64,000 nt of DNA, taken from NCBI GenBank assembly GCA_046497565.1, contig JAWOFK010000057.1, positions 2,096 to 66,095 on the forward strand, written 5' to 3'. This stretch comes from Dehalococcoidia bacterium (GTDB lineage: Bacteria; Chloroflexota; Dehalococcoidia; GIF9; AB-539-J10). Within the stretch, counting starts at the first letter, position 1. Each line of letters opens with the position of its first letter. Both the position numbers and the translations under genes were made by a program. Below, piece by piece: positions 28,941 through 64,000 of the stretch. The notes beneath the pieces were generated by a model, which was not told the origin of the DNA, ran no database searches, and was given only the letters and a program-made list of their open reading frames with translations.

Positions 28941-29168
28941 ATGAAAGACCTGGTGGAATACATCATCAAATCCATAGTGACGGAACCGGACCAGGTGAAG
29001 ATTACCGAGGAGAATAGTGACGACGGCTTGTTAATTAAATTAGAGGTTGCTCCCGATGACAAGGGCAGGGTTATCGGCAGACAGGGTCGCGTAGCTCAAG
29101 CACTACGAACGCTACTTCGCGTGAAAGCGGCTAAAGAGGAGACCAGGGTTAGACTGGAAATAGTGTAA
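28941..29168 (+). CDS. KH-domain RNA-binding protein (YlqC/UPF0109)
   Basis: It is 75 aa with DDKGRVIGRQGRVAQALRTLL (a GxxG KH loop). The position after rpsP is conserved. Confidence 0.9.
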   Translation: MKDLVEYIIKSIVTEPDQVKITEENSDDGLLIKLEVAPDDKGRVIGRQGRVAQALRTLLRVKAAKEETRVRLEIV

Positions 29169-29377
29169 TCGGGATTCACAGCAACCAGTATCCACGGTTT
29201 CTCACGAAATACCCATGAAGCCATGGACACGTTTCCCCCGCATCACAATCTTTGAGTCACACCACGGTTGTGGTACCATTCTCCTGGTTAAACGCCAGAT
29301 TTGCAGGGCTTCAAGGCCGTTGTTTTCCTACTTCAAGGTCAGATATGTGGATCCGTTCGTGATTCAGCGTCTAGAGT

Positions 29378-56759: not shown

Positions 56760-57758
56760 ATGCTCTACATTCTCTACGGGCGGGACGGTTTCTCACTCAA
56801 TCAAGCGTTGGACAGAATCAAGGCCGGCCTGGGCGAGCGGGAAATGGTAGCGACCAGCACCACCAGCCTGGAGGGTCGAAACCTGACCTTCAATGAACTC
56901 AGAAACAACTGCGATGCCGGTCCCTTTTTGTCCCCACATCGCCTGGTTATAGTCGACGGCTTGTTGGGACGCTTCGAGCCAAAACAAAGCAGACCGCGGT
57001 CGGGCAAAAGAGCCGCCAGGTCCGGCGGAGGGCTGGGCGAATGGCAAGGCCTGGCTTCTTACGTCGAGCGAATGCCGGAAACTACTGTGCTGGTGCTGGT
57101 TGATGGAGAGGTAAAGGGTCATAACCCCCTCTTAAAGCAGCTTTCGCCATCGGCCGAAGTAAGAACTTTCCCCTTGCTGCGAGGCCAGGACTTACGGGCC
57201 TGGATACAGCAACGGGTCAGGGAAGACGGCGGCGATATCACCCCCCCGGCTGTGAATTTGCTCGCCCAACTCATAGGCGGAGACTTATGGGCGATGGATA
57301 GTGAAATCCAGAAACTGCTTCTTTACTGTCAGAAGCGAGCTATCGGCGAGGATGATGTCAGAAAACTGACAAGCTATGTCCAGGAAGCTAACATCTTCGC
57401 CCTGGTGGACGCAGTGGCCGAAGGGCGGACCGAGGCGGCCCAGCGCATACTTCACCGGCTGTATAATGAAGGGATGGCGCCAACACATATCCTGGTCATG
57501 ATTACCAGGCAATTCCGCTTGATTGCCCAGGCCAGAGATCTCGAACCGGGCTTATCCCGCCCGCAGATTCAGGACAGGTTGGGACTGAAATCAAGCTATC
57601 CCCTGGACAAGACGCTCAGCCAGGCCAGACTTTATGATTTTGAAGGTGTGAAACGCGCTTACGATAAGCTTCTGGAAACGGACTCAGCCATCAAGACCGG
57701 CAAATACAGCGACAAGTTAGCTCTGGAGCTTCTGGTAACCGAACTTGCCTGCCCGTAG
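56760..57758 (+). CDS. holA: DNA polymerase III delta subunit
   Basis: It is 332 aa with an N-terminal LYILYGRDGFSL and the delta C-terminal helical domain (AYDKLLETDSAIKTG). Confidence 0.75.
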   Translation: MLYILYGRDGFSLNQALDRIKAGLGEREMVATSTTSLEGRNLTFNELRNNCDAGPFLSPHRLVIVDGLLGRFEPKQSRPRSGKRAARSGGGLGEWQGLASYVERMPETTVLVLVDGEVKGHNPLLKQLSPSAEVRTFPLLRGQDLRAWIQQRVREDGGDITPPAVNLLAQLIGGDLWAMDSEIQKLLLYCQKRAIGEDDVRKLTSYVQEANIFALVDAVAEGRTEAAQRILHRLYNEGMAPTHILVMITRQFRLIAQARDLEPGLSRPQIQDRLGLKSSYPLDKTLSQARLYDFEGVKRAYDKLLETDSAIKTGKYSDKLALELLVTELACP

Positions 57759-57780
57759 TTGACTGCATAAATTGGAGAAT

Positions 57781-57906
57781 AAAATCCTAAATTCTAAATA
57801 CTGGACAATATCAAATGACCAGAAGCCCAATGCCCAAAAAGGTTTTGAACTTTGAATTAAGATATTGGGATTTGTTTAGGATTTAGTGCTTGGAGTTTAG
57901 AATTTA
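57781..57906. repeat. AT-rich intergenic repeat (family 3)
   Basis: The sequence is AAAATCCTAAATTCTAAATA...TTGGGATTTGTTTAGGATTTAGTGCTTGGAGTTTAGAATTTA. It is related to 37755-37888. Confidence 0.7.
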
Positions 57907-57933
57907 ACTTGGAGTCGCGAAGGGGGGTTCAGA

Positions 57934-58383
57934 ATGAAAGCATGCGAAGGACGAATTGGCCGGGTGTTCGTGATACGGCTGGAGGATGGCGATGTTGTGC
58001 CCCGATGTATCGAGCGTTTTGCCGAAGAGAAGGGAGTCTCTGTGGGACATGCTATCCTGGTGGGTGGCATTGGGGGTGGCGACGTCGTTGTCGGGCCGCG
58101 GCGTTCGGAAGAAAGGCCGCCGGAGCCCGTGCTCCTGCCCATTGAAGGGGCCCACGAGGTGGTGGGGGTAGGCGTGCTCGCCCCTGATGAACATGGCAAA
58201 CCGGTCTTGCACATACATGCAGCCCTGGGCCGGGCGGGGCGGACCATGACCGGCTGCCTGCGGCAGGGCGTGACCACCTGGCTTGTCGGAGAAGTTATCC
58301 TCTACGAAATCCTCGGTGCAGACGTCGCGCGTATCCAGGACAAGCAGAGCGGCTTCGCGCTCCTGGAGCCTGGGGTACGATAA
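57934..58383 (+). CDS. PPC (DUF296) domain protein
   Basis: The pattern GRVFVIRLEDGDVVPRCIERFAEEKGV...AHEVVGVGVL...GKPVLHIHAALG fits the PPC domain. Confidence 0.7.
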   Translation: MKACEGRIGRVFVIRLEDGDVVPRCIERFAEEKGVSVGHAILVGGIGGGDVVVGPRRSEERPPEPVLLPIEGAHEVVGVGVLAPDEHGKPVLHIHAALGRAGRTMTGCLRQGVTTWLVGEVILYEILGADVARIQDKQSGFALLEPGVR

Positions 58384-58388
58384 CAGAT

Positions 58389-58426
58389 GTCATTGCGAGC
58401 GCCACCTTGTCGGGGCGTGGCAATCC
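58389..58426. repeat. REP-like family 1 unit (forward); left boundary of the accessory island
   Basis: GTCATTGCGAGCGCCACCTTGTCGGGGCGTGGCAATCC. The reverse complement of 63011-63049 is GTCGTTGCGAGTCCCGACTTGTCGGGGCGTGGCAATCTC, the same subtype in inverted orientation. Confidence 0.8.
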
Positions 58427-58529
58427 CGGTGGGGGTATGTGGGGCTATCCTGGAGACACAGCACCTCGTTTATGCTACGCTCAGTTAGTATTGCGTCCCT
58501 GTAATTTGTGGAATTCACAGCGATTTTCG

Positions 58530-58558
58530 TTCAAAAACAATGCCTTTTGAGCTAAAAT
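58530..58558 (+). promoter_or_regulatory. candidate promoter of island module 1
   Basis: TTCAAA (58530-58535), a 17-nt spacer, then TAAAAT (58553-58558). Confidence 0.25.
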
Positions 58559-58714
58559 GAAGACAAAGGAAATTGACGCAGCACGGTCATATAGCAGCTA
58601 ACTGAAGCGGTGGACTCAACGAAAGGCGACTACGATGTCTAACCAGAAAGTAAGCTCAAGAACTGAAAAGGAGCTCCAGGAAGCAATCTTGCGATAAGTG
58701 GTACGGCAATCAGA

Positions 58715-59485
58715 ATGGACAAGGAAAGGTTAACGTGGAAAGCTGTTGTCAGGGAAGCCCTATTGGAGTTAGGTGGACAGGGTCATTTATCGGAGATTAA
58801 CAAAATCGTGGAAGGTCATCCCAAAACCAAGACCAATCCAACTTGGCGGGATACTATTAGGCGAGTTGTAAGGCAATATAAGATTTTTCAACCAGTGCCA
58901 CCTGAGAGGAGTGGTGTTTACAAGGTTGTGGAAGAGGTCTCCGTAAGACCTGAGGCCCAAGTTTTTACTGAAGAACCAGAAATTGATCACGGAATCGCTC
59001 AAGCAATGCTGGCCACGCTGGGTAAAATTTACGGATATGAGACTTATGTGCCTCCGCATGACCAAACTATCAGAGAATTTCAAGGCAAATCCCTGGGAGA
59101 TTTTGTGACTGTATCCGACTGTACCGATATTTTCAGAGGCCCTAACTTGGCAAAAATCCGGGAAATAGACACTCTATGGTTTGATGAAGATGATTATGGA
59201 TTGTTTCCAGTCTACGCTTTCGAGGTGGAGGAGACAACAAGGGTAAAATCTGGATTGGACAGACTGCTGAAAATACCAAGTAGATTCCCTACTCGGTTTT
59301 TCATAATTGGACCAACCGTAAAGGAAAAGATTTTATTCGACCAATTCATCACTCAGACGCCCTTTCGAACATTTAGAAGTAGATTTCTATTTAGACTCTA
59401 CGAAGAGCTAGAAGCATTATATAACTCTGCTTTGGTTCACAATGACAGGCGGGAACAATTTGGAATCCTGGAAAGAGGAGGATGA
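58715..59485 (+). CDS. winged-helix + restriction-endonuclease-like (PD-(D/E)xK-fold) protein
   Basis: The N-terminal Mrr_N-like wHTH reads HLSEINKIVEGH...WRDTIRRVVRQY...GVYKVVE. The C-terminal core is HGIAQAMLATLGKIYGYETYVP...IDTLWFDEDD..PVYAFEVEETTRVKSGLDRLL (D152, E170-x-E172). There is no obvious SD. Confidence 0.6.
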   Translation: MDKERLTWKAVVREALLELGGQGHLSEINKIVEGHPKTKTNPTWRDTIRRVVRQYKIFQPVPPERSGVYKVVEEVSVRPEAQVFTEEPEIDHGIAQAMLATLGKIYGYETYVPPHDQTIREFQGKSLGDFVTVSDCTDIFRGPNLAKIREIDTLWFDEDDYGLFPVYAFEVEETTRVKSGLDRLLKIPSRFPTRFFIIGPTVKEKILFDQFITQTPFRTFRSRFLFRLYEELEALYNSALVHNDRREQFGILERGG

Positions 59486-59487
59486 AC

Positions 59488-59826
59488 ATGGACACCACAA
59501 AAAGACATTTTATACAGAGAGCAAATGAACTAGGAGTCTTGCTTGTTAGGGAAAGAAACTCCAAAGAAGATCTCTCTGGTTGGGGAGCGCTCGAATTTAT
59601 TCTGAGCAATGGAGAGATTTTTGTGGTATCTGCTCAACAGTTCGGGCAAGGAAATCACGAGGATGGATTATGGGTAGATATGAACAAACTCAATGCCGTT
59701 ACACTTAGCAGGATCAAGCAGAAAGCGTCAAGGCCCAGGAGAAAACAAAAGGAAGATACTATATCGGCTTGGCTGAAGCACCAAGCAGTGTCAGACCCAG
59801 AGGATATTCTGGGGCATACTACCTGA
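59488..59826 (+). CDS. hypothetical small protein with basic C-terminal tail, coupled to the upstream nuclease-like gene
   Basis: The track ATG at 59482 overlaps the upstream stop (ATGA). GAGGAGG at 59475-59481 is better spaced (6 nt) for the ATG at 59488. The tail reads KQKASRPRRKQKED. No family was recognised. Confidence 0.5.
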   Translation: MDTTKRHFIQRANELGVLLVRERNSKEDLSGWGALEFILSNGEIFVVSAQQFGQGNHEDGLWVDMNKLNAVTLSRIKQKASRPRRKQKEDTISAWLKHQAVSDPEDILGHTT

Positions 59827-59888
59827 TTTGTGATAGGCTTGATTATTATTGTGCCTCTGGAATTCATTTAATCTATTTGCGCATATAT

Positions 59889-59932
59889 GCATTGCGAGTA
59901 AGAAATAAGTCATTGCATTAGGGACATTGCTG
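59889..59932. repeat. degenerate REP-like family 1 remnants between the two island modules
   Basis: GCATTGCGAG lies at 59889-59898, GTCATTGCATT at 59909-59919 and GACATTGCTG at 59923-59932. Confidence 0.4.
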
Positions 59933-59941
59933 TAAAGAAAC

Positions 59942-60463
59942 TTATTTACGTTCGTTCCGTCTCTGTTCCAAGACTTGTCTTAGGTATTCCTCGCCTCTTG
60001 CGAGTGTACCGCTGAAATGTTGACTCACCACCACTTCGAATGCTGGGCAGACAGAGGTCTCAATATCCTTGATGCGGTATGCGCGCAATCGGCTAAGTGG
60101 AAGAGAGCCTGGTCTGAGATTACCCAGCGGTATATTGGCAAATACCCAATCTTCAAACATCTGTATCCGAACTGCAGCTATCACAGGCAGATAGCCATCC
60201 TTGGTGCGATCTTTTAGGGCCTCTATATTCTCTCTAGATATAGGAATGCTCTCACCATCCGTTGTCTTGACTTCCAAGGCATACTTCTTCCCCATCATAT
60301 TTGCAGCGTCGATGTCAGCGCCTTGCACTTCACGTTCAACTATGTCAAAGAAACCAGCTTCATAGAGGGCAAGAGCCAGTAGCTTCTGTGCAATCTTGCC
60401 GAAGATCCCTGGGCCGAATTTGGCACGAATCTGTTTTAGACGTTGGTATGTGTCCACCTTCAT
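59942..60463 (-). CDS. small PD-(D/E)xK nuclease-like protein, Hjc-resolvase-like core
   Basis: The ATG lies 3 nt after the upstream stop. Candidate catalytic residues are E35...GAD50ID52...YALE64VK66TT. The following ISRENIEAL...GYLPVIAAVRI parallels archaeal Hjc as I remember it. Confidence 0.6.
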   Translation of the reverse strand: MKVDTYQRLKQIRAKFGPGIFGKIAQKLLALALYEAGFFDIVEREVQGADIDAANMMGKKYALEVKTTDGESIPISRENIEALKDRTKDGYLPVIAAVRIQMFEDWVFANIPLGNLRPGSLPLSRLRAYRIKDIETSVCPAFEVVVSQHFSGTLARGEEYLRQVLEQRRNERK

Positions 60464-60466
60464 GGG

Positions 60467-62638
60467 CTACGCATTCCTAGTAATCTGTGGTCCGTTCTTT
60501 TCCGTCCAGTCAAGAAAATCATACACACCTTTGTTTTTGGTAATGTTAGTCATCAGGAGGTTTTTGAATCCTACGTATGGTGTGGAAATGATGAGTTGCC
60601 TCCGCTCAGCTATGTCCTCAAGCACAGTTACGAACTGTTGCTCCATTTCGGGTCCAAGACTCTGGGAGGGATCATCCAGCATCAGAAATGCGAAGGGCTG
60701 TGTCTCCTCTGCTGCCTCTGCTAAGCCAAAAAAGAGGGAAAGAGCTAGGCAATTAAGGTCTCCCTGGCTTAGAATAGGTGTTGGATCCAATCCATCCTTG
60801 CTCTTTATGTCATAGAAATTGAGTCCAGTTCGAGAATCCTCGGTTACTTCCATAACAAGCCCCCTTATAGTTGGATGGTTTGCTATGCGGCAGAAATATT
60901 TATCTAGGCTCGTTCCAGCAGCACCTATCTTAGCTTCAGCTTCCTCTCTTGAAGCAGTAGCTAAGGCACCTTTGATGGCCTGCACATCCTCCATAAACTG
61001 AGATGCTTTGTCTATCAACTTATCCAATTCTTTGTATTCCTTTGTGCTCCATATGCGCTCAACAATTTCTCTCTTCCGTTCCAGACTCAGGATCTCGTCT
61101 ATTGTTCTCAATTTCGCCAATTGGTCAAAGATGGCAATTCTCTTTTCACCCTGCTTTTCTATGGCCTTTTGTTGCGACTCTAACTCTGAAGCTATGTCCT
61201 GAAGCTGTTTGTTTAGAAGGGCGAGGGGGTCCTCATGCTTACCAATTTCACGTTGCAAAGCAACAGTGACTTGAGTTCTACATTCCTCTAAGCTAGAGCG
61301 AGCCACCGCCAACGCCTTTTCTAGTTGCTCAAGCTGGTCCTTAAAAGACTTAAGTTGCTTGAGTTCAACTTGCCGTTCCTTCCTCTCGGCCTCTAGGGCT
61401 CTTACCTCTACCTCTATCTTGTCTTCCCATTCACTCTCTAGTTGATTTAGCAACTGTGGTGCCTTGGCGCCACATAACGGACAGTATTTTTTTTCGGTAT
61501 CTGAGACCACTTCTCTAAAATATTGTACGGCCTCTCTGACCAGACTTGCCCTTGCATCTGATTTGTGTATGTCTTCCTCGACCCTTGTAATCTCTTCTTG
61601 TTGTGCCTCAAGAGCTTTAACTAGAGCAGTCTCGTCACCGTGCTGTTGAACGAATTTATCCCTTTCTGTTTGGGCTTCAGCCTCAGCTTTTTTGACATCT
61701 TCATATCTTCCTACAAGAGTGGCTAGTCCTCGTTGTTTTCTCTCTAGGGTTGTCTGCTTAACCATGTCTGGCGAGTGGAGCCAGACGGCGTCAATCTTGT
61801 CTTTTACGTCGTCTCGAAACTGCGCAACCTCCCCAAAACTCTGGGGCATGGTTATTGGCAGATCGCTTATCCCTAACTCCTGGGCAAGAGATATAACTGC
61901 CTCGCCAATGCCCTTTGCACGATGTAAAGCTTCCTTCTCGGTTATGTATTCTTCTCCCATACCCTCTACAATAGCCTTTTCCTTCTTCTCCCGTGCTTCT
62001 TTGTCGTATATGCGGATACTTTGCTCTGCACGTTGTCTGAAACTATCGAACTCATTCTTCATAGTCTTGTATAGATTCCCAATCTTTGCGTCGGTCATTC
62101 CTCGTACAAGTTCTCTATATTCAGAGAGGCCCAGAAGCCTATCAATGGCATCATTTCGATCTCGCGGCTCTTGTGTCAAGATAGCCCGAATAGCCTCTTG
62201 ATGCTGGTAGACTGTAGTCATGAAGTTTTGAAATGATGAATGGAATAAAGTGTAAATTTGGCGCTCTGCGTCATCACCGTGTAGCTCAACCCCGTCTGGC
62301 AACTCGACCATTATTCTCTCTGAAGCGCGTCTGCCAGTCCCGCTTAGCTCACGTGTCACAACATAATTACCCTCCGGGCCCTTGAATTCGACTTCAACGA
62401 GTACGCCTTCTCCTGATACATAACGATTGGAGATTTCCCACCCGATACGCTCACGGATGCCTGTCTTTTTGCCAACACAGTTCTCTCCAAAGAGGCACCA
62501 TTCTACAGCATTGAGGGTGCTACTTTTACCGCGGTGATTCTCACCGCAGAGGAGCACGACAGGCCGGTCAAAATTCAACTCCTGTGCATCAGCGAATCCT
62601 CGGAAATCGCGAATCTTAAGTCTCATAAGATGAAGCAT
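60467..62638 (-). CDS. SMC/Rad50/SbcC-like ABC ATPase with central CxxC zinc hook (mini-Rad50)
   Basis: Walker A is CGENHRGKSS (nt 62522-62545). A Q-loop-like YQHQ is present. Long heptad-rich arms flank CPLCG (res 386-390, nt 61472-61483). The signature-like motif is LSQGD (623-627) and Walker B is FLMLDDP (651-657). A GGGGGG SD precedes the ATG at 62638. Confidence 0.8.
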   Translation of the reverse strand: MLHLMRLKIRDFRGFADAQELNFDRPVVLLCGENHRGKSSTLNAVEWCLFGENCVGKKTGIRERIGWEISNRYVSGEGVLVEVEFKGPEGNYVVTRELSGTGRRASERIMVELPDGVELHGDDAERQIYTLFHSSFQNFMTTVYQHQEAIRAILTQEPRDRNDAIDRLLGLSEYRELVRGMTDAKIGNLYKTMKNEFDSFRQRAEQSIRIYDKEAREKKEKAIVEGMGEEYITEKEALHRAKGIGEAVISLAQELGISDLPITMPQSFGEVAQFRDDVKDKIDAVWLHSPDMVKQTTLERKQRGLATLVGRYEDVKKAEAEAQTERDKFVQQHGDETALVKALEAQQEEITRVEEDIHKSDARASLVREAVQYFREVVSDTEKKYCPLCGAKAPQLLNQLESEWEDKIEVEVRALEAERKERQVELKQLKSFKDQLEQLEKALAVARSSLEECRTQVTVALQREIGKHEDPLALLNKQLQDIASELESQQKAIEKQGEKRIAIFDQLAKLRTIDEILSLERKREIVERIWSTKEYKELDKLIDKASQFMEDVQAIKGALATASREEAEAKIGAAGTSLDKYFCRIANHPTIRGLVMEVTEDSRTGLNFYDIKSKDGLDPTPILSQGDLNCLALSLFFGLAEAAEETQPFAFLMLDDPSQSLGPEMEQQFVTVLEDIAERRQLIISTPYVGFKNLLMTNITKNKGVYDFLDWTEKNGPQITRNA

Positions 62639-62652
62639 ATTCTCTACCCCCC

Positions 62653-62853
62653 CTACAGCATGTCATTGAGTTTGGCAAGCAAGACATCAAAAGTCTCTCG
62701 AAATTCATCCATTTCAACTGCCAATTCATTTGCGACACCTTCTGCTCCTTCCTTTTCGAAAGAATCCGAAATAGTGTGCCACAAAGCCTTTCTTTCGTCT
62801 GCTCGCTGTTCCATCATAGCAATTTTGTCTAGTACCTTTTCATTGTGACCCAT
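62653..62853 (-). CDS. 66-aa acidic helical protein, first gene of the island operon
   Basis: A strong GAGGAGG SD lies 5 nt upstream. It sits 14 nt before the ATPase gene. The sequence is Glu/Asp/Ala/Leu-rich and no family was recognised. Confidence 0.55.
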   Translation of the reverse strand: MGHNEKVLDKIAMMEQRADERKALWHTISDSFEKEGAEGVANELAVEMDEFRETFDVLLAKLNDML

Positions 62854-62886
62854 GCTGACCTCCTCGTATCTCCTGAGTTAAGAGTA

Positions 62887-62915
62887 ACATTACTACTTAG
62901 GTAAGAAAAATTCAA
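62887..62915 (-). promoter_or_regulatory. candidate promoter of the island operon
   Basis: The minus strand reads TTGAAT (complement of 62910-62915), a 17-nt spacer, then TAATGT (complement of 62887-62892). Confidence 0.3.
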
Positions 62916-63010
62916 GGAATAACAGCGTTATGGGGCGTATTATCTTCAGCGGGGACATAATGCCTGACTTATAGTAGGCCTGATTAGTATGGTGTTCCTG
63001 GATTCCCGCT

Positions 63011-63049
63011 GAGATTGCCACGCCCCGACAAGTCGGGACTCGCAACGAC
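63011..63049. repeat. REP-like family 1 unit (inverse); right boundary of the accessory island
   Basis: GAGATTGCCACGCCCCGACAAGTCGGGACTCGCAACGAC is the inverted partner of 58389-58426. Confidence 0.8.
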
Positions 63050-63161
63050 AACAACGGGGAAATCGTGATGACGAATGGACGTTTGGGGGAGGGGGAATTG
63101 CGCTTGCGATGACGAGGGGAAGACAATGCAGTTGTCAGGCTTTCTTCACCCTCACCTTAAT

Positions 63162-63182
63162 CCTCTCCCGTCAAGGGAGAGG
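63162..63182. repeat. GC-rich hairpin (family 2 style)
   Basis: CCTCTCCC-gtcaa-GGGAGAGG forms an 8-bp stem. Confidence 0.6.
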
Positions 63183-63211
63183 GAATGCCACTTTTAGGAA
63201 AGTTTGTTTCT

Positions 63212-63220
63212 TGCTATAAT
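63212..63220 (+). promoter_or_regulatory. extended -10 TGcTATAAT 13 nt upstream of the activase ATG
   Basis: The sequence is ttcTTGCTATAATtgctgaccgcgcaATG. There is no SD in the spacer. Confidence 0.4.
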
Positions 63221-63233
63221 TGCTGACCGCGCA

Positions 63234-64000
63234 ATGGGTTACTATCTGGGCGTAGATATCGGCTCTGTCAATGCCAAGCTGGCACTCATAGAGGAGAATG
63301 GCAGGGTCGTTCAATTTGATACCGAGAAGGCCAGCTCCGGCCCCAGGGCCGCAGTCAGTTCCCTCATCGCCAGGCTGGGCGAGAGATTCAATCTCAAGGA
63401 TATTTTGGCTGCCGGTGTATCCGGTTCCGGCAGGGCCTTCATCCCGCAAGAGATGGGCTGGACGCAATACAGCAGCTCGCTGTCCATTATCTCCGGGCTG
63501 CTCCACCACCATCCCGACGTTAAAACCGTTATACAAATCGGCGGCCAGAGCACCCTGGTGATAGAGCTGGAAGACGGCTTGAAGAAGCCGTGGAAGGTGG
63601 AATCCAATCCCCTTTGCGCCGCGGGTACAGGAAGGTTCCTGGAGCAGCAGGCCTACAGGCTCGGCATCAGCATGGAGGACTTCGCCAGCCTGGCGCTGCA
63701 ATGCCAGGGCACTCCACCCAGGATAGCCGCCCGCTGTAGCGTATTTGCCAAGACCGACCTCATCCACCTCCAGCAGAAGGGGGTCCAGCTGGACGCCATG
63801 CTTTATGCACTGTGCGAAAGCGTGGCCCGTATGGTGGCGGCCCTGAAGAAAGGGCCCTTCCAGGAGCCGGTCTATTTTGTGGGCGGCGTTGCCGCCAACC
63901 CCGCCGTGGCCAAGTCCCTGAACGACATGATTTCCGACAGGAATGGTCATCCCGTTGAAGTAATCATCCCCGAGCACTACCTGCACATGGAATCCCTGGG
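63234..64000 (+). CDS. BcrAD/BadFG-family ATPase (2-hydroxyacyl-CoA dehydratase activase-like); 3' end beyond window
   Basis: Absent from the track because it is edge-truncated. It reads MGYYLGVDIGSVNAKLALIEENG (ASKHA phosphate-1), then IQIGGQS, CAAGTGRFLEQQA and VYFVGGVAANPAV. The frame is open to nt 64000. Confidence 0.8.
   Translation, partial: MGYYLGVDIGSVNAKLALIEENGRVVQFDTEKASSGPRAAVSSLIARLGERFNLKDILAAGVSGSGRAFIPQEMGWTQYSSSLSIISGLLHHHPDVKTVIQIGGQSTLVIELEDGLKKPWKVESNPLCAAGTGRFLEQQAYRLGISMEDFASLALQCQGTPPRIAARCSVFAKTDLIHLQQKGVQLDAMLYALCESVARMVAALKKGPFQEPVYFVGGVAANPAVAKSLNDMISDRNGHPVEVIIPEHYLHMESL

Follow-up and report, generated by a model that had tools for sequence, protein, structure and literature searches.

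A two-cassette defence islet in a Dehalococcoidia genome, with conserved 64-bp elements at its joints and a separate pair of inverted repeats outside them

Short palindromic repeats which border exchangeable genes have been described in several settings. Integron cassettes carry attC sites, whose best-conserved feature is the AAC/GTT triplets (PMC4889954). In Neisseria the arrangement NTS-gene-NTS lowers transformation, and cleavage of the repeat is strand-specific (Chenal et al. 2025, Nat Commun, PMC11893778). Repetitive extragenic palindromic (REP) sequences and bacterial interspersed mosaic elements (BIMEs) go together with REP-associated tyrosine transposases (RAYTs). Here, a 4.6-kb segment from a Dehalococcoidia bacterium is compared with these systems. 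It lies in a stretch of 64,000 nucleotides (GCA_046497565.1, contig JAWOFK010000057.1, positions 2,096 to 66,095), called the window in the following, which is contig C46 of a 1.87-Mb assembly of 102 contigs and 92% completeness (G000). The segment is an accessory, horizontally acquired, two-part islet in a variable insertion hotspot, and the joints of its cassettes are copies of a conserved 64-bp element. An original prediction had described an accessory island bracketed by inverted copies of one REP subtype, with a degenerate copy between its two modules; the pair, the drop in composition and the accessory status were borne out, but neither the degenerate middle copy nor a special status of the pair within its repeat family was.

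The order of features along the islet is PCC gene, REP unit (+), element e1, cassette A, element e2, cassette B, element e3, REP unit (-) and activase gene (Table 1). In three genomes of the same genus (G001, G024 and G010) the PCC and activase genes are adjacent, with a spacing of 60–170 bp, and these were taken as empty sites, whereas other cargo follows PCC in G004, G007, G008 and G017. The prediction of an accessory segment in an insertion hotspot thus held. In G004 a methylase-led restriction-modification (R-M) unit is present; in G008 there is a 587-aa AIPR/MzaE-like gene (L027:3256-5019); in G007 PCC runs directly to a radical-SAM gene, and in G017 it is followed by unrelated DNA. The G004 hotspot (L014:5335-7974) contains a 517-aa methylase and two small open reading frames (ORFs), one of them weakly NucS-like. 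A full-length homologue of the 723-aa SMC gene of the islet was found in just one of 150 other genomes of the order (G085, 29% identity). The GC content of the islet is 0.451, compared with 0.539 and 0.574 in its flanks (sliding values of 0.41–0.49 within and 0.53–0.63 outside), and at third codon positions (GC3) it is 0.40–0.47 in the five islet genes, compared with 0.61–0.67 in GH38, ychF, holA and PCC. This agrees with the compositional drop predicted from G+C counts of 27 and 23 in single lines inside and 41 just outside, all of which proved exact. Domain and PADLOC scans detected no integrase or transposase domain in any ORF of the islet, again as predicted, and the islet is not a genomic island of the type with its own mobility gene or with direct repeats at a tRNA att site.

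The 64-bp element was first noticed as a conserved sequence upstream of the activase gene in the empty sites of G001 and G010. A profile search of the window yielded three copies, all on the plus strand and all in the islet; the remaining 59 kb contain no copy. The element, GGTATTCTGGGGACATAATACCTGATTTGTAGYAGGCCTRATTGGTATGGTGTCCCTGGAATTC, is imperfectly palindromic and has the consensus GGTATTCTGGGGACATAATACCTGATTTGTAGTAGGCCTAATTGGTATGGTGTCCCTGGAATTC (50 ungapped copies from eleven genomes). Its edges are sharp: in these 50 copies the information content is 0 before the first G, 0.6–2.0 bits inside, and falls from 1.67 to 0.1 bit after GGAATTC. Most positions carry 1.5–2 bits across species. 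Within each of the eight contigs of G000 with several copies all copies have one orientation (8/8; random expectation about 1e-4). Counts across genomes are lower bounds; co-oriented arrays of at least 5–9 copies were present in G001, G010, G023, G024, G046 and G049, whatever the direction of the genes. Every one of the 31 genomes sampled from the genus contains the element; beyond the genus it was found in six further genera of the family and in a single genome from outside the family. Of the genomes of the order, 38 had the element and 113 lacked it. An exact 24-mer of it occurs almost exclusively in records of metagenome-assembled genomes of Dehalococcoidia or Chloroflexota.

Several roles for the element were considered and dropped. 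A hand-drawn stem of 19 pairs can form in 76% of cells, compared with 30–50% when the partners are slid, but shuffled sequences equal this value; no covariation above shuffles was detected, RNAalifold gave no consensus structure for the element, and an Rfam scan of 57500-64000 at a loose threshold produced chance-level matches alone. A structured RNA was rejected since RNAalifold gave no structure and pairing was no better than in shuffles. No excess of matching 3- to 4-mers, as expected for a target-site duplication, was seen at any edge offset of the 50 copies. Thus a DDE-type MITE (a miniature transposable element with inverted repeats) was also rejected; one locus with two inverted half-elements around a Y1_Tnp match (L096) was not reproduced elsewhere. 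A role as promoter or terminator was discarded, since a consensus scan flagged none of the three elements and about 40% of the copies and their neighbouring genes are convergent. Replication-linked orientation was dismissed as well, the orientation agreeing with the sign of the local GC skew in just 7 of 14 contigs. An apparent "long form" on contig C44 turned out to be the ordinary element, in whose loop a further small repeat is nested. The two copies there (G000:C44:27874-28106 and 29032-29267) contain the same loop insertion of about 175 bp, a dispersed CCCCTCTTAAGATAAGAGGGG-type repeat; the block of element plus insertion is duplicated 1.16 kb apart, i.e., repeats are nested in repeats.

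That the elements are the joints of the cassettes follows from comparisons of occupied and less occupied sites. The empty sites of G001 and G010 have one copy of the element; in the window, with its two cassettes, there are two copies more. G007 (PCC-element-radical SAM) and G004 (PCC-element-R-M-element-radical SAM) differ by one cassette and one element. The same rule was observed at an independent locus 3' of argG. In G010 the argG stop codon is followed by an element and then by AGTAAGCGACAG..., while in G049 the order is argG stop codon, element, 366-aa cassette, element and (CTCCTC)AGTAAGCGACAG...; the difference is exactly one 366-aa cassette and one element, with the break immediately 3' of GGAATTC. 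Further along this array a cassette of 268 + 795 aa in G010 is exchanged for one of 214 aa in G049, between elements. In G046, which belongs to another genus, at least nine co-oriented copies follow argG, with unrelated cargo. In three contexts (the window, L055 and L058/L059) two elements with the same relative orientation bracket the SMC module of the islet, and the neighbour genes differ. The homology of L055 to the window (89% nucleotide identity, 59803-63002) ends at the outer edge of e3.

Element e1 is chimeric. Its left two thirds and the preceding spacer match the copy located upstream of PCC in both G001 and G007. Its right edge with the next 30 nt matches the R-M cassette of G004, and the change from one to the other falls at the right edge of the element. 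The PCC gene itself may be a cassette between elements, because the e1 block is upstream of PCC in G001 and G007 and downstream in the window (window 58420-58530 versus L013:3835-3975 and L014:5125-5260).

The cargo between elements in G000 consists mostly of defence and toxin-antitoxin genes: a type I R-M operon, Fic/DOC, AbiEi, a PLD-SNF2 helicase, DUF3800 and three genes for MNT-type nucleotidyltransferases, one with a weak HEPN neighbour. On contig C3 (G000:C3:3369-5094) the end of a gene for a large serine recombinase of 525 aa is separated by about 100 bp from a partial copy of the 64-bp element, next to the AbiEi gene; this is the only recombinase gene of G000 that adjoins an element, and the AbiEi gene with its unannotated 281-aa neighbour is likely a toxin-antitoxin pair.

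The reading which we favour, with moderate confidence, is that of a two-cassette defence islet which has the 64-bp elements as joints and is turned over by recombination between them, the REP pair being a separate matter. Recombination between elements, in which the exchange takes place at the GGAATTC edge or beside it, would add, remove and swap cassettes; the logic would be that of an integron cassette array. The agent could be an enzyme acting in trans, or homologous recombination between highly conserved copies. Candidates for such an enzyme would include a conserved adjacent pair of tyrosine recombinases (e.g., at G004:C3:103847-105902) and HUH or serine recombinases. A more specific proposal goes further than the evidence at hand and is put forward tentatively, as a possibility with less than even chances: the element might be the site of an undescribed, integron-like cassette-array system of one Dehalococcoidia family, with a non-IntI enzyme encoded elsewhere, which shuffles defence, toxin-antitoxin and accessory genes.

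A number of observations weigh against turnover at the elements. No integron integrase was found in G000 (92% complete), the best match to TIGR02249 reaching 92.5 bits compared with a cut-off of 265, and no tyrosine recombinase was found beside the arrays in six genomes, bar one case in G049. The repeat that flanks the Y1 transposase genes is a different one, and no RAYT gene was linked to the 64-bp element. In G008 cargo follows PCC without a left-hand element. The elements around the SMC module are about 65–76% alike between contigs, as judged by eye, whereas the cargo is 83–89% alike; the elements are thus not clearly travelling with the cargo. Segments bounded by elements have a GC content which is just mildly low (0.493 versus 0.518). 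Some arrays also hold housekeeping-like genes (MutS2, VLRF1, GlcD/F), and so the element may be a general intergenic repeat, in which case any gain or loss of a gene would look element-bounded.

This last point leads to a rival explanation, which we consider rather unlikely. The element would be just a REP- or MITE-like intergenic repeat, a terminator or an insulator that piles up in dispensable regions; elements would stand at cassette borders since these are the only non-coding places there, and the islet would have arrived otherwise, e.g., by transformation with homology in the flanks. The occurrence of elements between housekeeping-like genes agrees with it, and so do the convergent copies, which imply no fixed tie to transcription, the failure of the searches for an integrase or an array-side recombinase, the missing covariation and the nesting of other small repeats in the loop of the element. 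It does not readily account for the difference of one cassette plus one element at two independent loci, where the breaks fall at the edge of the element, nor for the chimeric e1, which shows exchange at the element. Strictly uniform orientation within arrays regardless of gene direction, the lack of target-site duplications and the presence of three copies in 4.6 kb, compared with none in the rest of the window, also speak against a repeat of this kind.

Could the arrays then be canonical integron cassette arrays, i.e., clusters of attC sites lacking integron integrases (CALINs), and the element an attC site? The size and imperfect palindromic form of the element, its presence once per cassette, the common orientation and the cargo rich in defence and toxin-antitoxin genes would all fit, and integrons do occur in Chloroflexi (PMC4889954). 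However, no IntI was found in G000, and AAC/GTT triplets are absent from the consensus of the 50 copies on both strands. The sequence shows no covariation and, contrary to attC sites, strong conservation between species. The arrays begin where core genes end, right at their stop codons, and neither attI nor intI is present there. An assignment to CALINs is hence highly improbable.

The inverted pair on which the original prediction was based is real. The left unit, GTCATTGCGAGCGCCACCTTGTCGGGGCGTGGCAATC, starts at 58389 (+) and the right unit, GTCGTTGCGAGTCCCGACTTGTCGGGGCGTGGCAATC, ends at 63049 (-); a repeat search returned them as arms of 46 nt with 83% complementarity, and the positions predicted for the pair were confirmed. 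An exact 20-mer, CTTGTCGGGGCGTGGCAATC, is present in both units and nowhere else in the window (0.04 expected). The inner hairpin of the left unit is degenerate. The pair had been interpreted as terminal inverted repeats of a mobilisable, non-autonomous cassette, which could be moved in trans, e.g., by a RAYT or TnpA(REP) protein. In favour of this are the inward-facing arrangement around foreign DNA and the situation in G004, where the same right element and REP (-) junction are present despite a different downstream gene. But both units lie outside the true joints, the 64-bp elements. The left unit is missing in G004, whose islet matches that of the window at both ends, and the SMC module occurs in other contigs between 64-bp elements without any REP unit, i.e., the same genes were found without the flanking repeats.

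The repeat family also offers little ground for terminal repeats. G000 contains 87 full units with heads GTCRTTGCGAG, and the motif GTCRTTGC-N6-45-GSAATC occurs 70 times, compared with 1–7 times in surrogates. The two copies at the islet are 86% alike, but they are not mutual closest relatives: the partner ranks 6th and 16th of 86. There are 25 facing +/- pairs in G000, 15 of them less than 200 bp apart and 5 at 2–10 kb; the pair at the islet is therefore unremarkable in its family. The search for other cargo between inverted copies, which had been suggested, gave the four further kb-scale pairs, all of which enclose DNA of ordinary or high GC content (0.535–0.582). The search for a RAYT-type gene was likewise unsuccessful, since G000 has no intact Y1/RAYT gene, just fragments or Y1_Tnp matches containing stop codons, and RAYT-like genes of congeners go with GTAG-headed repeats (see below). 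The interpretation as terminal inverted repeats is largely refuted and retains very little probability.

REP units appear and disappear at this locus independently of the cargo. The left unit is absent at this spot in G004, G007 and G010 and present in G021, and the empty site of G001 holds a REP remnant. In the spacer on the right side, the unit, a degenerate second unit and a hairpin of a third family precede the conserved activase promoter (TTTTAGGAAA...TTGCTAYAAT). The hairpin of the third family occurs also in the same intergenic region of G001 (L013:4410-4450) and G024 (L015:4250-4290), in an orientation opposite to that in the window. The two REP units are best regarded as bystanders, which landed independently in the spacers outside the array and neither delimit nor move the islet. 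The predicted degenerate CATTGCGAG-type remnants at 59889-59932 are the 3' untranslated region of the 173-aa gene; the reading as a degenerate REP fails because the stretch is conserved together with this gene in contigs without REP heads (L055 and L056, which hold no REP unit).

A more fitting counterpart for the REP family is the NTS/SRM-Ssn system (PMC11893778). G000 has a gene for a 95-aa single-domain GIY-YIG protein (G000:C81:9700-9984; PF01541, 59 bits), which is bracketed by units of the family, one immediately upstream (9639, +) and one overlapping the stop codon (10024, -). In 151 genomes of the order the median number of units was 61 with the GIY-YIG gene and 8 without (Mann-Whitney p 9e-11, uncorrected for phylogeny), and the gene was present in 32 of 47 repeat-rich but in 4 of 50 repeat-poor genomes (also uncorrected for phylogeny). 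The units share the layout of the Neisseria NTS (CGTCATTCCCGCGMAVGCGGGAATCYRG), in which a short hairpin is preceded by an oriented GTCATT head and followed by an AATC tail. Likenesses to the NTS/SRM-Ssn system are the number of intergenic copies (tens to hundreds), which often face each other in pairs around genes, and the gene for a GIY-YIG protein of about 95 aa which is flanked on both sides by the repeat and with which the number of repeats changes. Unlike there, the stem is ATTGCGAG...GCAAT and not ATTCCC...GGGAAT, with often an extra inner hairpin. The published degenerate SRM string matches neither unit of the islet and has 10 matches in G000, compared with 10–16 in surrogates. The family behaves like a variant SRM/NTS-like motif tied to a putative Ssn-type GIY-YIG nuclease for single-stranded DNA; it is called a variant because the string given by Chenal et al. 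neither matches the units nor is enriched. G000 would thus extend the published Ssn/NTS framework to Dehalococcoidia.

Under this framework, the REP pair could act as an NTS-genes-NTS fence. The targets of an Ssn-type nuclease would lower replacement or loss of the islet by transformation with island-free DNA, since either incoming strand would carry one cleavable unit between the islet and one homology arm. This idea is compatible with turnover at the 64-bp elements, but we would give it only a minor chance. It is in line with the NTS layout of the units, with the flanked GIY-YIG gene and the numbers of units that track it in the 151 genomes, with ComEC, which is encoded in G000, and with the precedent in Neisseria. 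On the other hand, the units miss the published string, which is not enriched, and the assignment to cd10448, the cleavage of single-stranded DNA and natural competence are putative here. Also, with 87 clustering units a facing pair at this spacing is nothing unusual, and the inner hairpin of the left unit is degenerate. At most, the REP units may be fences which modulate transformation-driven replacement.

Classical REP/BIME sequences with RAYT genes resemble the repeats at the islet in being short extragenic palindromes, clustered and often in inverted pairs, but the units here lack the GTAG head and flank no RAYT gene. A distinct system seems to exist in congeners: Y1_Tnp (RAYT-like) genes of G001:C113, G024:C26 and G049:C3 (L091, L092 and L094) are flanked by separate GTAG-headed hairpins, e.g., TGTAGTGCGACCCTTCAGGGTCGTGC. 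This family together with Y1_Tnp looks like a classical REP/RAYT-type system, distinct from the repeats of the islet. In G000, five C-terminal Y1_Tnp fragments with the same score and extent (51-aa frames, 32.9 bits) were noted at C18:19618, C28:6260, C76:22094, C90:23254 and C101:4694; at least three of the five (those on C18, C28 and C76) are found no farther than about 100 bp from the end of a contig, which points to a multi-copy element of the IS200/IS605 type that breaks the assembly.

Cassette A (58636-59826, plus strand) represents a decayed R-M unit. Homologues of the 256-aa protein with 74–92% identity occur in several phyla, all with a precomputed PF27126 (NmeDI_C) assignment. In other contigs a 299-aa N6_N4 methylase gene precedes the restriction gene, its end overlapping the start of the latter. 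In the window the endonuclease gene is intact, and 20 codons are left of the methylase, so that the pair of endonuclease and cognate methyltransferase of a type II R-M system is incomplete; a cognate methylase was not found elsewhere in the G000 assembly. Either the endonuclease is inactive, or it is tolerated, or the assembly merges strains. A search of PDB sequences gave nothing usable for the 256-aa protein.

Cassette B (59942-62853, minus strand) contains, in the order of its genes, the 66-aa protein, the SMC protein and the 173-aa protein. The 723-aa SMC protein matched the PADLOC model LmuB PDLC03859 (2.9e-52) with residues 3–711 on model positions 4–608 of 611, and showed a weak match to Rad50 heads in PDB (3e-7). 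When it was used to look for related loci among genome contigs, no relatives were obtained. The 173-aa protein is probably a small PD-(D/E)xK (Hjc-like) nuclease, as its motif suggests, and presumably the effector of the module; PDB sequences gave nothing usable for it. The three genes are kept together in seven contigs (L055-L061) with five distinct contexts, and neighbours there are usually R-M, TIR, KAP NTPase, SIR2 or HerA-type genes. The set of 66-aa protein, SMC and nuclease can be regarded as a conserved candidate defence module. It resembles Lamassu (LmuA/LmuB/LmuC) and Rad50/SbcC-type modules in the SMC/Rad50-like ATPase, which matches LmuB in full length, and in the pairing of the ATPase with a nuclease and a small third protein in defence islands. 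The differences are the probable Hjc-like 173-aa effector and the order small protein, SMC, nuclease. Neither the 173-aa nor the 66-aa protein matched the PADLOC models LmuA or LmuC, and the module is therefore termed LmuB-like and not Lamassu.

Table 1. Positions of genes, elements and repeats at the PCC-activase hotspot, in coordinates of the window.
Feature	Position	Strand	Remarks
PCC-domain gene	57934..58383	+	PF03479 1.2e-18; orthologues with 86-90% identity in 8 congeners; conserved left flank of hotspot
Left REP unit (SRM/NTS-like hairpin: GTCATTGCGAG, hairpin, GGCAATC)	58388..58433	+	inserted between PCC stop codon and e1
Element e1	~58444-58507	+	diverged chimeric copy; nhmmer E 0.19
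N4/N6 DNA methyltransferase remnant	58636..58698	+	first 20 codons, then stop; homologous to start of the 517-aa (G004) and 299-aa (L062) methylases
256-aa NmeDI-type type II restriction endonuclease homologue	58715..59485	+	PF27126 (NmeDI_C) via homologues; PADLOC REase_II 1.5e-4
114-aa ORF	59482..59826	+	overlaps stop of restriction gene; intact; no family match
Element e2	59802..59865	+	joint between the two cassettes; nhmmer E 5e-9; counterpart at same position relative to 173-aa gene in L055, L058
Conserved 3' untranslated tail of 173-aa gene	59889..59932	-	kept with the gene in unrelated contigs L055, L056
173-aa protein	59942..60463	-	D..D..EVK motif; NF040854 Hjc 6.7e-4 (below cut-off); always after SMC gene
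723-aa SMC/Rad50-like ATPase, LmuB-like	60467..62638	-	CPLC zinc-hook motif; PADLOC LmuB; AAA_23, SMC_N, AAA_15
66-aa helical protein	62653..62853	-	first gene of module; kept upstream of SMC in seven contigs (L055-L061)
Element e3	62943..63005	+	right joint of islet; nhmmer E 3.5e-17; orthologous to single copy in empty sites of G001, G010
Right REP unit (SRM/NTS-like)	63005..63050	-	between e3 and activase promoter
Degenerate short REP unit (GTCATCGCAAGCGCAATTCC on minus strand)	63093..63116	-	putative; read from sequence
Third-family hairpin (CCTCTCCC-GTCAA-GGGAGAGG, CACCCTCACCTTAAT arm; also CCTCTCCCTTGAYGGGAGAGG, ATTAAGGTGAGGGTG arm)	63146..63186	-	read from sequence
BcrAD/BadFG-type activase gene	63234..64000, runs off window	+	PF01869 1.4e-30; conserved right flank; adjoins PCC in G001, G024, G010

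Some variation was also observed on the left side of the PCC gene and at contig ends. An AT-rich element of about 130 nt in the gap between holA and PCC (57781-57906) is common to the window, G010 and G004; in G001 and G007 the gap contains a cluster of REP units, third-family hairpins and one 64-bp element instead. Contig C233 of G021 (L004/L028) terminates inside a REP unit after PCC, and contig C47 of G017 (L002/L017) about 370 bp beyond PCC in non-repeat sequence. Small repeats probably fragment the assemblies of this genus and conceal variable regions.

A defence islet at a hotspot with small flanking repeats is in itself ordinary. The 64-bp element, however, bears on the question how small, reduced Dehalococcoidia genomes (1–2.5 Mb, with few obvious mobile elements) turn over their accessory genes. 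Should there be a dedicated enzyme, the integron principle would have been invented independently for a second time, and a new tool for site-specific recombination might be at hand. If there is none, the arrays would be a clear natural case of short conserved repeats which serve as homologous-recombination joints of modular defence islands. In either case the element should be a practical landmark for variable cargo and candidate defence systems, e.g., the module of 66-aa protein, SMC and nuclease, in uncultured lineages.

Of the known systems, the element is closest in logic to attC, yet it fails each defining molecular feature of attC. In common with integrons and CALINs, each cassette is followed by one imperfectly palindromic site of about 60 bp, the sites of an array share one orientation, loci with and without cargo differ by a cassette and one site, exchange falls at the 3' edge of the site, and the cargo is rich in defence and toxin-antitoxin genes. 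In contrast to them, an integron integrase, attI and the AAC/GTT core are absent here, and the sequence itself, not just the structure, is conserved across species and genera. The cassettes are up to 9 kb in size, with several genes in either direction, and the arrays abut the stop codons of PCC or argG. The minimal mobile elements of Neisseria, and hotspots of defence islands between core genes, are comparable in that alternative cassettes stand between the same conserved genes, with repeats at the borders and no internal mobility gene; unlike these, the locus described here has a dedicated, sharply bounded and oriented 64-bp element at each cassette border, and several stacked cassettes.

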